Below are positions 3,230 to 62,149 of a DNA stretch of 64,000 nt, piece after piece. Position numbers and translations under genes: made by a program. Position 1 is the first letter of the stretch; the number at the start of each line of letters is the position of its first letter. The stretch comes from Minisyncoccota bacterium (GTDB taxonomy: Bacteria > Patescibacteriota > Minisyncoccia > Phycocordibacterales > UBA9973). Location of the stretch: the NCBI GenBank assembly GCA_018061035.1, contig JAGOUX010000002.1, forward strand, positions 24,722 through 88,721, read 5' to 3'. The notes beneath the pieces are model-generated. The model was not told the DNA's origin and made no database searches. It saw only the letters and a list, made by a program, of their open reading frames with translations.

Positions 3230-3313
3230 ATAGTAGAGTCTATAATAAAACTACTAATAAATCAATCTCGGTTTATATATAGGGTAGGGCGTACTCAAAC
3301 AGCCCTAGATCTT

Positions 3314-3322
3314 TTATCCACA
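3314..3322 (+). promoter_or_regulatory. perfect DnaA box TTATCCACA in the rpmH-dnaA intergenic (oriC / dnaA promoter) region
   Basis: Exact 9-mer consensus read directly from the sequence. Confidence 0.5.
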
Positions 3323-3389
3323 CTTTATCAACATACTTAATAAGGTTTAACAAGTTCCGAGCAATCTATTAATAGTATAATATGGAGCA

Positions 3390-3462
3390 ATGAATCCCGT
3401 TAGAAGTCTTACAGCGGGAAAATTAGTCGGTACAATTAATATTAATTAACTTCTAACGGGAT
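3390..3462 (+). promoter_or_regulatory. structured 5' leader element with a 19-codon uORF (MNPVRSLTAGKLVGTININ) and a 13-bp inverted repeat whose distal arm covers the dnaA ATG
   Basis: IR arms ATCCCGTTAGAAG (3394-3406) and CTTCTAACGGGAT (3450-3462). TATAAT at 3376-3381 places the uORF ATG (3390) near the TSS. A homologous element precedes msrB at 59892-59965. Confidence 0.4.
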
Positions 3463-4804
3463 GAATACAAAACAGCTGTGGAAAAATTGTCTCGCGGATA
3501 TTGAGACAGGCCTATCTAAGGCAAATTTCAGTACCTGGTTCAAAAATACCTCGATTCTTAAAGAAGAAGCTGGAATAATCTTTATCGGAGTACCAAATGA
3601 ATTCGTTCGAGACTGGCTTAAAAACAAATACCATAAGTTAATCACCAAAACCATCGCAGATGCTTTTGAAAACATGCGTGCGGTAGAATACATCATCACT
3701 AAAACCGAAGTTGAAAAGGATGAACCAGAAAGAACAGAAGAGGTTTTTGCAAATAAAGAGCTTCCGCTTAAGGATCTTTATATTAGCCCAGAAGACAATC
3801 TAAATCCTCGCTATCAGTTTGATTCGTTTATCGTTGGAGGCTTCAATGAGCTTGCTTATGCGGCAGGACAAGCAATTATAGATAATCCTGGTACAAAATA
3901 TAACCCATTTTTTATATATGGTGGAACAGGTTTAGGTAAAACCCACCTTATCCAAGCAATAGGAAACACTATAAAGACTAGATATCCAAATAAAAAGGTT
4001 CATTATATGACTTTGGAGAAGTTTGCGACTGATTTTATCAACTCTCTTCAAAACAACAAAGCTAATTCATTCAAAGAAAAGTATCGTAAATATGATCTTT
4101 TAATCATTGATGATATTCAATTTATTGGTAAGATGGAAAAAATTCAAGAAGAATTATTCCATACTTTTAATACTTTTCATGAGGCCAATAAGCAAATAAT
4201 CTTTTCATCCGACAAACACCCAAACTATATTCCAGAACTTGCTGATAGATTAAAATCTCGTTTTGCTGCAGGTATGATAGTAGACATATCAGAACCAGAA
4301 TACGAATCTCGTTTAGCTATTTTAAAGGTTAAATTAAGAGACCAAAACTTGGACTTAGACCAAAGCGTCGTTGAATACATTGCTGGGGCTATACAAGGCA
4401 ATATACGCGAATTAGAGGGTAGTCTAAACTCAATAGTCATGCAGTATCGACTCAAAAACAGAGCATTAACTCTTCCTGAAGTAAAAAACCTCCTTAAAAA
4501 CAACATGAGGCCAAAGAAAAATATCGCTATTAAGGATGTTGTAAAAATAGTTAGCGAACATTACAAACTCGAAGAATCTTCTGTTTATGAAAAAACTCGA
4601 AAGAAAGAAATTGTTCGAGCTAGGCAGGTGGTGATGTATCTACTTCGAGAGGATTTTAATGTGTCATACCCATTGATAGGACAGAAGTTGGGAGGGAAGG
4701 ACCATACTACAGTCATACACTCTTGTCTCAAGATCAAAGCAGACCTAAAAAACGATCCCCAGCTGATGCAGGAGTTGGAACAGATAAGAGTTATGTTTAA
4801 ATAG
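3461..4804 (+). CDS. dnaA: chromosomal replication initiator protein DnaA
   Basis: 447 aa with AAA+ Walker A GGTGLGKTHL, sensor motifs and the C-terminal DnaA-box binding domain; followed by dnaN. Confidence 0.95.
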   Translation: MNTKQLWKNCLADIETGLSKANFSTWFKNTSILKEEAGIIFIGVPNEFVRDWLKNKYHKLITKTIADAFENMRAVEYIITKTEVEKDEPERTEEVFANKELPLKDLYISPEDNLNPRYQFDSFIVGGFNELAYAAGQAIIDNPGTKYNPFFIYGGTGLGKTHLIQAIGNTIKTRYPNKKVHYMTLEKFATDFINSLQNNKANSFKEKYRKYDLLIIDDIQFIGKMEKIQEELFHTFNTFHEANKQIIFSSDKHPNYIPELADRLKSRFAAGMIVDISEPEYESRLAILKVKLRDQNLDLDQSVVEYIAGAIQGNIRELEGSLNSIVMQYRLKNRALTLPEVKNLLKNNMRPKKNIAIKDVVKIVSEHYKLEESSVYEKTRKKEIVRARQVVMYLLREDFNVSYPLIGQKLGGKDHTTVIHSCLKIKADLKNDPQLMQELEQIRVMFK

Positions 4805-12520: not shown

Positions 12521-12972
12521 TACATTAAGAATATGCTATATTACCAAAGTAAGGGATTTATACACACTGTATACACAGGGCTATGCACAGTATAGCATTT
12601 CTTGTTTTTACAAAGTAGTATAATTTCTTGCAGAGTTCATTAAAGAAGAAGGCATTAATCTCTAAGCAATCAGCCATCGGTTATACGATTTTGCGTAGGA
12701 CGTTCTGGTTCTATTTATAGACCACTGGAGCCATCCTATAATAATTTGTTACTCTCGGGGCCCAGCCCTGAAAGGATTGTTTAGAGATTAGTGCTTTTTT
12801 TATGAAAGCATTACGAAAAGTATGAAAACAAATAAAATACATTTCAATATTAACGCGTATTACCAGTCTTCACATAGAAGGCTGATCTTTGCGTTGTAAA
12901 ATTTTTTATAAATTTACAAACACAACATAAACGTCGGCTTTCTATGAAAAGGGAAGCCGGCGTTTTCCGTTT

Positions 12973-37084: not shown

Positions 37085-37169
37085 CCAATTAAAAAATTAA
37101 AATTAATAATTATTATCTTTACGCATAAACCCGTAAATTTTCTAACGGGACGCGTGGTATAATTGTAGT

Positions 37170-38012
37170 ATGGATCGCATTAGAAACATATTAATACTCA
37201 CTCTTTTAACTTCAGGACTATTCTTTGCGCCATTGTACTCTTATGCTGCAACCCCGGTCAAGATTCTGCTTGTTCCTGGGCATGACAATGAAGTCTGGGG
37301 TGCTCAGTATGGCAATGTAAAAGAGGCAGCAATGAATCTAGCGGTGGCAAGCAGAATATACAATATCCTTAAAAAGGATAAGCATTTTGAGGTATATATT
37401 ACACGCGACATCTCAGGCTACACCAAAGAATTTTCCGATTTTTTAACTACCAAAAGAGAAGAAATAAATGCATTTAGAGCCGATCTCAAGAAAAATATGG
37501 TCGCTAAAATTGAAAGTGGTGAATTCATCCAAAAGGAAAATGTTCCTCACAACAACGCCGGAGAAGATGCTGCTGTTATGCTTTATGGAATTAATAAATG
37601 GGCCAACGAGAACAAGATGGATGCTGTGATCCACATTCACTTTAACGATTATCCCAGGAAGACTAGCTGGACTATAGGCAAGCACACAGGCTTTGCCATA
37701 TATATGCCCGATGGCGAGCTAGAGAATTGGTTTGAAAGTGGGCAATTGGCTGCAGATATATATACTCAGCTTCGAAAAAAGTATCAGACCAGCACCTACG
37801 AAGAAGAGCTCGGCGGGTTAGTTGCAGATCAAAAACTTATTGCAATTGGCGCCAATGGAAGCCTTTCTTCAAGCGTGCGGTCCGTTTTAGTAGAGTATGG
37901 ATATATGTACGAGAAGAAATTCCGTAATTACACAACTCGTCATCAAGCCTATGCTGATATGGCAAAGCTAACAGCTCAAGCTATAAAGAATTACTTTTCC
38001 CCAAAAAATTAG
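37170..38012 (+). CDS. N-acetylmuramoyl-L-alanine amidase (Amidase_3 family) with signal peptide
   Basis: ILLVPGHDNEVWGAQ, E-rich helix and DAVIHIHFND zinc-ligand pattern of Amidase_3; TGgTATAAT extended -10 at 37153-37161. Confidence 0.7.
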   Translation: MDRIRNILILTLLTSGLFFAPLYSYAATPVKILLVPGHDNEVWGAQYGNVKEAAMNLAVASRIYNILKKDKHFEVYITRDISGYTKEFSDFLTTKREEINAFRADLKKNMVAKIESGEFIQKENVPHNNAGEDAAVMLYGINKWANENKMDAVIHIHFNDYPRKTSWTIGKHTGFAIYMPDGELENWFESGQLAADIYTQLRKKYQTSTYEEELGGLVADQKLIAIGANGSLSSSVRSVLVEYGYMYEKKFRNYTTRHQAYADMAKLTAQAIKNYFSPKN

Positions 38013-39821: not shown

Positions 39822-39931
39822 GCATTTCGGACTATAATTAATAAAAGCACGCATAAAATTCTACTGAATTTTTGCTCAAGACTACGGGCTGTCGCCCTCC
39901 GTATGGCTTTTATTAATAATAATCCTTCACT

Positions 39932-59783: not shown

Positions 59784-59891
59784 TCGAGCCGCACCAGCCA
59801 CAGTATCACAATAGGTGCAATCAACACCGCCACAAAGAGAAATCTTGTGGCGATTTCTCTTTTAAATGTACAAATGAGTTATAATAATTAT

Positions 59892-59965
59892 ATGGATCCC
59901 GTTGGAAATTCGAAAACGGGAAGTTTTAAGATTAATTATTACTAAGTAAAATTTCTACGGGATGG
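59892..59965 (+). promoter_or_regulatory. second copy of the structured leader element: 17-codon uORF (MDPVGNSKTGSFKINYY) plus inverted repeat whose distal arm covers the msrB ATG
   Basis: Homologous to 3390-3462 along its length (GGATCCCGTTGGAA ... CGGGAA ... ATTAATTA ... TTCTACGGGATGG); TATAAT at 59880-59885 is about 7 nt upstream of the uORF ATG. Confidence 0.4.
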
Positions 59966-60351
59966 ATATAAACGAAGAAGAATTGAAAAATAAATTAACT
60001 CCTGAAGAATATGCAGTGTTGCGCCAGAAGGGAACCGAGGCTCCTGGCACAGGTAAGTATCTGCATGAAAAAAGGCAAGGAACATACGCGTGTAAAGTCT
60101 GTGGGGCAGAACTTTTTCCCTCAGACACCAAATTTGATTCCGGAACAGGATGGCCATCTTTCGATCAGGCTATCCCAGGAGCAGTAAAAGAGATCACTGA
60201 TGATTCCCATGGCATGAGTCGCACCGAAGTGGTGTGCGCGAATTGCGGTTCGCATCTCGGCCATGTATTTGATGATGGCCCTACCGAGACAGGTAAGAGA
60301 TATTGCATGAATTCTGTTTGTTTAGATTTGAAAGCAAAGGACGGAGAGTAA
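59962..60351 (+). CDS. msrB: peptide-methionine (R)-S-oxide reductase MsrB
   Basis: Two CxxC zinc motifs ([21 protein letters not shown]) and catalytic region GTGWPSF. Confidence 0.85.
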
Positions 60352-61051: not shown

Positions 61052-62149
61052 ATGACTATGACAAAATTCATACCAGGAATGAAATTGAGTAAGTTGTATT
61101 ACGAAAAAGAAGTAAGACCTATTTTAGATAAAAGCTTCCCTGATCTCAAATACTCGGCTGGTCTATTTGGCTGGGGTTCAGAGGTTTTAGGTTATGACAC
61201 AGAAATCTCAAGAGATCATAATTGGGGGCCACGAGTATTTATATTTCTTGGAGAAAAGGATTACTCAAAATTAAAAGATAAAATTGATAAACTCTTAGCT
61301 GAAAAATTATCCTACAATTTTATGGGGTATTCAACTAACTACAGCAAATCAGCTTTAAACGGTGTAAAACACCCTGTAAAAATAACTTCAGGAAGAGTGA
61401 ATCATATGGTTGGTGTTTATACAATAAAATCCTTTTTTGAAATGCGCCTGAAGTTTAACCCCGAGAAAAAAATAACAGCATCTAATTGGTTAAGTTTTCC
61501 ACAACAAAGATTATTAGAAATAATCAGTGGGGAAGTTTTTCATGACGGATTAGGTAAGTTAAAAAAAGCTAGGGAAAAGTTCGAGTATTATCCAAAAGAT
61601 ATTTGGTTATATATATTAGCTTCTCAATGGACTAGAATTTCTCAAGAAGAAGCTTTTGTGGGTCGCACAGGACATGCAGGGGATGAATTAGGTTCGCAGG
61701 TCGTGGCCTGTAGAATTGTCCGAGACATAATGAAATTATGTTTTTTAATGGAGAAAAAATACTATCCTTACAGTAAGTGGTTTGGCACCGCGTTTAGTAA
61801 ATTGAAAGTGGCTAAGCAACTTTCTCCATTACTTAGAAAAGTTTTATTATCTCAATCCTGGGAACAAAGAGAGAGGGAGCTTTCTAAGGCATACAAAATA
61901 ATTATTAAAGCGCATAATTCCTTAAAAATAACGCAGCCGTTCCCAGTAAAAGTATCTAAATACTATGGTAGGCCATACCTTGTAATTCATGGGGAAGGAT
62001 TCGCTAAGGCAATAAAAGGAGAAATTAAAGACTCAGAAGTAAAGAAAATAAAAACAAATATAGGTTCCGTGGATCAATTTACAGATAGTACAGACATAAC
62101 GGAAAACCTTAATATTTGCCATCAATTAAGTTTACTTCATAAGAATTAA
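61052..62149 (+). CDS. hypothetical protein (possibly nucleotidyltransferase-associated / DUF4037-like)
   Basis: 365-aa ORF downstream of tRNA-His. There is no clear catalytic motif, so the family call is weak. Confidence 0.35.
   Translation: MTMTKFIPGMKLSKLYYEKEVRPILDKSFPDLKYSAGLFGWGSEVLGYDTEISRDHNWGPRVFIFLGEKDYSKLKDKIDKLLAEKLSYNFMGYSTNYSKSALNGVKHPVKITSGRVNHMVGVYTIKSFFEMRLKFNPEKKITASNWLSFPQQRLLEIISGEVFHDGLGKLKKAREKFEYYPKDIWLYILASQWTRISQEEAFVGRTGHAGDELGSQVVACRIVRDIMKLCFLMEKKYYPYSKWFGTAFSKLKVAKQLSPLLRKVLLSQSWEQRERELSKAYKIIIKAHNSLKITQPFPVKVSKYYGRPYLVIHGEGFAKAIKGEIKDSEVKKIKTNIGSVDQFTDSTDITENLNICHQLSLLHKN

Follow-up and report, generated by a model that had tools for sequence, protein, structure and literature searches.

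In ermC-type leader attenuation, and in termination-reinitiation coupling, a short upstream ORF (uORF) runs over one arm of an mRNA stem, the start of the main gene lies in the other arm, and an alternative local pairing is available. Stems in mRNA that are able to alter expression are also formed by the Correia elements (CREE) of Neisseria, which are short, lack a transposase, have terminal inverted repeats and a target duplication, and occur in many copies, often just 5' of genes; RNase III cleavage and element-borne promoters have been documented for them (PMC10969869). The Rickettsia palindromic elements (RPEs) are palindromic selfish DNA within a reduced genome; inserted in frame into its protein-coding genes, they are translated as additional peptide (PMC10969869). 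piggyBac and IS1380, its prokaryotic relatives, make a 4-bp duplication of the T..A type (TTAA, with the variants TAAA, TCAA and CTAA), have repeats that start with CCC and excise precisely (PMC10813416).

The leader of dnaA in the stretch of 64,000 nucleotides analysed here (hereafter the window) resembles the ermC-type leaders in the position of its uORF over one stem arm and of the main start in the other, in its alternative local pairing and in the uORF stop near the main start, which both copies in the window have. Unlike those leaders it has no conserved leader peptide, no conservation among orthologues and no known signal, and it would have arisen by one insertion. With the Correia elements it shares the small size, the missing transposase, the terminal inverted repeats, the target duplication, the many copies and the frequent position just 5' of genes, and its repeats, too, are predicted to form a stem in the mRNA. 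It differs from them in length (45–130 bp compared to 100–155 bp), in an unrelated repeat sequence, in a 4-bp TNNA duplication instead of TA, and in an insertion within the start codon, the start being rebuilt by the last base of the element. The likeness to RPEs is one of behaviour only, with no homology claimed: intragenic copies of the present family are in frame and open, whereas RPEs are about 150 bp long and reside in Rickettsia, and the dnaA copy of the window is out of frame. We know of no start-codon preference of RPEs. The piggyBac end CCCTAGAAAGATA resembles CCCGTTAGAAAT of this family, which is set apart from piggyBac and IS1380 by an extra Y/R base outside CCCG...CGGG and by having TGAA and TAAA, not TTAA, as its commonest duplications. 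A kinship suggested by the resemblance of the ends and of the duplication may serve as a lead only; in the 2.2 Mb searched no transposase was found beside the repeats.

We attribute the dnaA feature, with a probability of about 0.87, to a non-autonomous, MITE-like palindromic element of 67 bp that was inserted at the start of an originally leaderless dnaA; hairpin and uORF would then be tolerated by-products and not an evolved attenuator. That the element moved by transposition we infer from structure alone.

Architecture of the dnaA leader

The features of the dnaA region and the other copies in the window were located as follows.

3314–3322 and 3325–3333, plus strand: tandem DnaA boxes, TTATCCACA and TTATCAACA, read from the sequence; the pair is also present in orthologues
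3373–3381, plus strand: dnaA promoter −10 region, TAGTATAAT, with TATAAT at 3376–3381; before the insertion it served a leaderless dnaA mRNA
3390–3392 (ATG) to 3447–3449 (TAA), plus strand: uORF of 19 codons and stop, translation MNPVRSLTAGKLVGTININ
3391–3394, unstranded: first TGAA of the 4-bp target-site duplication, 5' of the element, from flank statistics on 149 copies and from empty sites A-TGAA-T
3395–3461, unstranded: the palindromic insert itself, 67 bp long and made up of T + CCCGTTAGAAG...CTTCTAACGGG + A, from a 71-nt alignment gap and from family members
3394–3407, plus strand: left stem arm of 14 nt, in which the terminal inverted repeat is joined by the A of the duplication; its complementarity to 3449–3462 is 100%
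3408–3419, plus strand: degenerate repeat of the 3' arm within the element, CTTACAGCGGGA, pairing locally with 3395–3401
3449–3462, plus strand: right stem arm; the element ends with A3461, and with this base the rebuilt dnaA start codon begins
3462–3465, unstranded: downstream copy of the duplication TGAA; its TG completes the ATG and its AA begins codon 2
3461–4804, plus strand: dnaA ORF of 447 aa, intact from the rebuilt ATG, with Pfam DnaA domains
59897–59962, unstranded: second element copy, 66 bp, at A/TGGA/T of leaderless msrB, with the same architecture and inner arm copy as at dnaA
59893–59896 and 59963–59966, unstranded: duplications of the msrB copy, read from the sequence
37130–37149, unstranded: possible collapsed remnant of the family, CCCGTAAATTTTCTAACGGG, by resemblance only

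The TATAAT hexamer and the 19-codon ORF reported for this leader in the initial annotation were both present. The inverted repeat described there as 13 bp is perfect, but it measures 14 nt per arm with 41 nt between the arms. The dnaA ATG, placed by the same source within the second arm, is indeed buried, but only A3461 and T3462 lie inside the arm itself. RNA of positions 3388–3475 folded as a long hairpin with −21.2 kcal/mol (z = −4.5; none of 200 shuffles was equally stable), and this thermodynamically preferred fold conceals the rebuilt dnaA AUG. The proposed inner alternative pairing was recovered as a local hairpin of 7 bp and −8.7 kcal/mol, and pairings able to hide or expose the start, the long stem versus the local hairpin, are both present in the leader. 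The uORF is in a different frame from dnaA and its stop lies 11 nt 5' of the rebuilt ATG.

Genes of this organism are mostly leaderless and hardly use Shine-Dalgarno (SD) sequences. In the window a −10-like hexamer was observed 5–10 nt before the ATG in 31 of 60 crude ORF calls, compared to 15% of internal control ATGs, and SD-like motifs were not enriched (13% versus 10.5%). The lack of room for an SD, which had been remarked on for dnaA, is true of the site and carries no special meaning, because the organism hardly uses SD sequences in any case.

The DnaA protein of the window is 100% identical to that of a Candidatus Pacebacteria MAG and shares 82–92% identity with numerous DnaA sequences from Ca. 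Nomurabacteria/Paceibacterota, the closest relative, P0002, being at 92%. Its N-terminus MNTKQLWKNC is common to the orthologues. The DnaA-box pair, about 40–60 nt 5' of the −10 region, was kept in nearly all 80 orthologous dnaA upstream regions; of the region 5' of dnaA it is this pair that is really conserved, and it is a candidate for autoregulation or origin function. Rfam 15 held no family for the dnaA element: the window gave tRNAs only, positions 3300–3520 gave nothing credible at E-values up to 10, and six related loci gave no match.

The homologous element that had been noted in front of msrB was confirmed. There, TATAAT at 59880–59885 lies 6 nt 5' of the upstream ATG at 59892, and the rebuilt msrB ATG is at 59962; the arms contain one bulge, the uORF has 17 codons and stops 16 nt before the msrB ATG, and the local hairpin has −9.7 kcal/mol. 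No msrB homologue was present among the related loci compared, hence no empty msrB site there. At 37130–37187 the remnant-like CCCGTAAATTTTCTAACGGG is situated just 5' of the TGGTATAAT promoter of a leaderless gene at 37170. This gene begins with ATGGATCGCATTAGAAAC, in agreement with ATGGAT + CCCGTTAGAAG at 14 of 17 positions, and may be the product of an old element end fused to a gene. Other long imperfect inverted repeats in the window, unrelated in sequence to the family and with 57–103 nt between the arms, were seen at 12646–12800 (26-nt arms, 85%), 39829–39925 (20-nt arms, 90%) and 61724–61853 (33-nt arms, 73%).

Empty and filled sites and the element family

The upstream regions of 80 orthologous Nomurabacteria dnaA loci (81 with the window; gene calls throughout are crude) were compared. 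In about 70 of the 80 dnaA was leaderless, with the ATG right behind the promoter in the form TAGTATAAT-N7-8-ATG(A/G)AT-ACA-AAA-CAG. One locus, L010, has a promoter string, tagtataatatggagcaATGAAT, identical to that 5' of the window uORF, and its dnaA site is empty. Relative to the empty-site orthologues the window contained one clean extra block of 71 nt (alignment A1), which corresponds to the element and one copy of the duplication. Filled sites were found in 9 of 81 loci (the window, L013, L024, L031, L034, L040, L060, L062 and L065), dispersed among empty-site relatives in a neighbour-joining tree that is rough and leaves the number of independent gains uncertain. The nearest relatives compared at the DNA level (L002, L003 and L206, the last with a DnaA identity of 89%) had no intact element. 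uORF lengths varied from 7 to 39 codons (7, 8, 8, 10, 19 and 20 in dnaA carriers), as did the position of the stop between carriers, and homology of the peptides was limited to P-V-R, because it is the terminal repeat that gets translated. The leader had initially been taken for a conserved one, and missing conservation in orthologous leaders had been named in advance as the result that would speak against this; with most orthologues leaderless and the uORF of variable length, that is what we observed.

The same loci also hinted at loss and renewed gain of the element. At the dnaA start of L023 (8070–8081) and L039 (1557–1568) we found ATGAAT-ATGAAC (protein MNMNTKQ), that is A + TGAA + T + A + TGAA + C, which looks like an excision scar that keeps both copies of the duplication and the terminal T and A. 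In L024 (1420–1514) an element is inserted into scar-type sequence at the dnaA start, which suggests repeated insertions at one site. At dnaN, L040 and L060 carry the element, whereas the window has an empty site. In other dnaA orthologues leaders of 20–68 nt occurred without recognisable terminal repeats (L046 9930–10000, L206 1440–1500, L053 160–189; in L206 a TAGTA... promoter-like string is duplicated), and these may be decayed copies or unrelated insertions.

The insert is a member of a large family of short palindromic mobile elements that is common in small groundwater bacteria. Family ends read Y-CCCGTTAGAA...TTCTAACGGG-R (YCCCGTTAGAA/TTCTAACGGGR), and the length is 45–130 bp, with a few copies of about 276 bp. 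Matching termini were present at more than 20 sites in Nomurabacteria loci and, by a pattern scan counted regardless of taxonomy, in at least 120 metagenome contigs. This sample of at least 120 stretches is biased towards exact 10-mer ends and lengths of 60–90 bp and includes several contigs of 0.3–1.0 Mb. Altogether 186 copies were gathered, 149 of them simple; two lie in the window, and the density reached 5–6 per 21 kb in L013 and L040. With the same termini in hundreds of copies elsewhere, the view of the element as a reusable module and not a chance palindrome was borne out.

The extent of the duplication was determined from the flanks of the 149 simple copies. Direct matches were frequent at positions 2–5 (0.85, 0.81, 0.78 and 0.86) and not at positions 1 and 6 (0.47 and 0.44), and the bases touching CCCG...CGGG were complementary in 96% of the copies, being either C..G or T..A. 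Since the match is confined to positions 2–5 and the innermost bases are complementary, the duplication is a 4-bp TNNA and the element ends in Y...R. Flanks with 0–1 mismatch over 6 bp were observed for 78 copies, compared to 14 with shuffled flanks. Variants of the duplication were TGAA, TAAA, TCAA and TTAA, of which TGAA and TAAA were the commonest targets. A 6-bp duplication ATGRAT was also considered and was dropped in favour of the 4-bp TNNA with Y/R ends on the basis of the per-position flank statistics. The pairing arms of the dnaA leader, initially read as a regulatory design, are therefore the terminal inverted repeats of a mobile element with its target-site duplication.

Copies occur in both orientations, between genes and in frame within genes, and the family has the characteristics of MITEs: short length without a transposase ORF, terminal inverted repeats, a duplication, many dispersed copies, and filled and empty orthologous sites. 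An autonomous copy with a transposase and matching ends was found neither among repeat pairs 0.7–4 kb apart nor beside solo repeats in the 2.2 Mb searched. The interior varies between copies and is not conserved; some GC-rich members contain inner hairpins whose arms differ between copies in a compensatory manner (CTCGC/GCGAG, CTCAC/GTGAG, CTCTCG/CGAGAG). Tandem or nested copies, with elements in or beside one another, were seen at L092 616–799, L156 1326–1473, L147 107–452, L161 1276–1385 and L162 6800–6874. The element pattern was matched four times in IMG/VR viral contigs (L202–L205), twice within a single contig of 30 kb; these contigs could be phages of Patescibacteria or mis-binned DNA. 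Full-text literature held nothing relevant on the repeat sequence or on MITEs in Patescibacteria, and the family, abundant in the reduced genomes of this group, is apparently undescribed in the literature searched.

Copies at start codons and within reading frames

The position of the copies relative to genes depended on their terminal bases. Of 47 T..A-ended copies 36 lay exactly at an ORF start, compared to 20 of 92 C..G-ended ones, and TGAA was the duplication in 39 of 57 start copies. In the Nomurabacteria loci 512 TGRA sites lie at predicted starts and 2958 are intergenic, and yet all 13 TGRA insertions were at starts, in about nine independent genes besides dnaA. Start-codon occupancy thus far exceeds the neutral expectation. 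In gene-start copies, both window copies included, the duplicated inner arm was always a 3' arm lying beside the 5' arm when read in the direction of the gene (12 to 0). Copies were also far better conserved than their surroundings: those at dnaA in L034 and L040 are 95% identical, compared to 66%. C..G-ended copies rebuild the start as GTG, with the recurrent pair ATGAAC...GTGAAA, and 15 of the 20 C..G start copies contain an in-frame ATG that opens M-x-K-K...I-S-N-G-V-K (for example L156, L160, L150, L200, L139, L146, L152 and L121); here the element supplies a new N-terminus, and translation probably does not begin at the annotated GTG.

Much of the start excess, the orientation bias and the conservation can be explained by a survival filter. 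Survivors at start codons would be favoured because it is only there that the duplication, together with the terminal purine, makes the gene whole again. Insertions in the reverse orientation would be lost because they would place a tight local hairpin on the start, and copies would stay young because of turnover from a conserved master copy. The same three observations could also mean that the host uses the element. Selection for uORF stops close to the main start was not detected: the distances were spread over 4–93 nt, and none was clearly overrepresented apart from that set by the TAA of the repeat. A search for an outward promoter in the gene-proximal arm gave −10-like hexamers (at least 4 of 6 positions) in 15 of 37 proximal versus 10 of 37 distal ends and hence no clear asymmetry.

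Copies within reading frames were frequently compatible with translation. Of the 149 copies, 86 have a length divisible by 3 (about 50 expected), and many lack stops when read as CCC-GTT-AGA...TCT-AAC-GGG or in the frame translated as T-P-L-E...L-T-G. Virtual excision restored an ORF with at least 60 codons on both sides for 15 copies, of which 11 were in frame and open. The dnaA copy itself, with a 65-nt core and a stop, is out of frame. Because multiples of 3 and stop-free sequences are enriched, the intragenic copies are translated and not skipped; removal at the RNA level in the manner of an intron, or bypassing by ribosomes between matching take-off and landing codons, was ruled out by these copies.

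In yidD an insert of 25 aa, IN-PVRSRSPQGDRST..AASNG-IN, was found in L013, L018 and L023, while the window and 36 other loci have a form of 71 aa. The three copies (L013 9246–9314, L018 9281–9349, L023 7441–7509) are 69 nt long, GC-rich and nearly identical, with 94–96% identity versus 46–50% at yidD third codon positions. Their differences include compensatory changes in the inner hairpin, CTCGC/GCGAG versus CTCAC/GTGAG. In L031 (324–400) and L040 (9193–9269) the yidD start apparently lies within the element (MKNN..ILTSNG-IKLINFYQ), and start codon and N-terminus seem to come from it. In type IV pilin-like genes we observed in-frame copies at the prepilin motif G-F-T/L-I-E-L, read FTPLE...LLTGFT (L098 304–363, L127 8544–8603, L158 2159–2230, L178 8234–8302), the target being TTTA within GG-TTT-AC.

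Probable origin of the dnaA insertion and its consequences

In the proposed event, A/TGAA/T to A-TGAA-[T CCCG...CGGG A]-TGAA-T, the element entered, and duplicated, the TGAA that reaches from the dnaA start codon into codon 2. The upstream TGAA preserves the old ATG at the 5' end, and a meaningless reading frame of 19 codons now runs from it into the element. The terminal A of the element, together with the downstream TGAA, rebuilds ATG-AAT and leaves the DnaA reading frame untouched, and in the transcript the terminal inverted repeats necessarily form the 14-bp stem that buries the rebuilt ATG. A single insertion accounts for the upstream ATG, the uORF, the stem and the intact dnaA together.

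The reading from which this work started, a dedicated and conserved leader-peptide attenuator of dnaA that was duplicated to msrB, draws on a geometry that is as described, with the uORF running through arm 1 and the start in the stem. It is very improbable given that about 70 of 80 orthologous leaders do not have the element, that length, frame and stop of the uORF vary and its peptide is a translated terminal repeat, and that the element also occurs within ORFs, between genes and in both orientations. Hardly tenable, and the least probable of the readings, is a structured cis-regulatory RNA (a riboswitch or thermometer) with the start codon enclosed in its closing helix. The stable closing helix and the compensatory inner hairpins of some GC-rich members fit such an RNA, but neither the region nor six other loci matched Rfam at E-values up to 10, the interior varies between copies, and flanking duplications, presence/absence polymorphism and in-frame translation within proteins speak against it. 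Spread of the palindrome by a route other than cut-and-paste, either REP/RAYT-type single-strand transposition or recombination and gene conversion, would agree with the missing transposase partner in the 2.2 Mb searched and with the high similarity of copies across diverged species. Staggered-cut DDE transposition, for its part, typically leaves a direct target duplication and perfect terminal inverted repeats, and REPs create no target duplication. The 4-bp TNNA duplication, palindromic in its consensus, and the perfect repeats of the present family therefore point to the DDE type, and the apparent scar in L023 and L039 keeps both copies of the duplication and the terminal T and A, which renders the non-cut-and-paste routes improbable.

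More weight, while still unlikely, is given to exaptation, in which the mobile T..A-ended subfamily became, or always was, a portable start-codon-homing unit of translational control: pairing of arm 1 with the inner arm would be the ON state, pairing of arm 1 with arm 2 the OFF state, and ribosomes on the upstream AUG would switch between them. The 36 of 47 T..A copies at starts (20 of 92 for C..G), the 13 of 13 TGRA insertions at starts and the 12 to 0 orientation of the inner arm are in line with this, as are the two window copies, in both of which the local hairpin is present (−8.7 and −9.7 kcal/mol) and the uORF ends 11 or 16 nt short of the main ATG. In every frame, moreover, an upstream ATG either fuses to the gene, ends at the TAA of the repeat 4 nt before the start, or ends at a TGA overlapping the ATG, and the copies are better conserved than their flanks. 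Loss of gene-silencing insertions would, however, filter to the same pattern, as the start codon alone restores an intact ORF, and turnover from a conserved master copy also predicts high conservation. In addition, the uORF stops lie anywhere between 4 and 93 nt 5' of the start, the −10-like hexamers revealed no asymmetry, and most species do not have the element at dnaA. A related proposal, doubtful but somewhat better placed, sees in the T..A subfamily a start-codon-homing element adapted to leaderless genes. It would enter A/TGNA just 3' of the transcription start, rebuild the start, be translation-safe in three frames and form a two-state 5' hairpin, altogether a portable, reversible cassette; the A end would give ATG, the G end of the C..G subfamily GTG, and an in-frame fusion would read P-V-R...S-N-G. 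We retain the tolerated MITE-like insertion as the preferred origin of the dnaA feature.

After such an insertion dnaA could be translated in several ways. As the likeliest route, which we favour tentatively and at somewhat less than even odds, a ribosome on the 5'-terminal AUG would cover arm 1, end 11 nt before the dnaA AUG and free it for re-initiation or fresh initiation. Alternatively, kinetic trapping could keep arm 1 in the local hairpin with the inner arm copy and leave arm 2 unpaired. The internal promoter-like site CTTACA-17-TACAAT at 3408–3436, which is weak and at chance level for the region, might give a short leader without arm 1, or a nuclease might cut in the stem as for Correia elements. 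The opening of the hairpin by ribosomes, as originally suggested, is thus a possible physical consequence of the insertion, while a dedicated evolved control of dnaA is unsupported.

The insertion removes a false lead, that of a new leader-peptide control of the replication initiator. It indicates a family that is tolerated in start codons and reading frames of essential genes, with consequences for gene calling, start-site annotation and the comparison of protein lengths in metagenome-derived genomes. If the start-codon preference reflects real targeting, the leaderless architecture of genes would here be exploited by a transposon in a novel manner, and if the start-homing proposal were true, a cassette would repeatedly enter and leave essential genes (dnaA, dnaN, yidD) in Patescibacteria.
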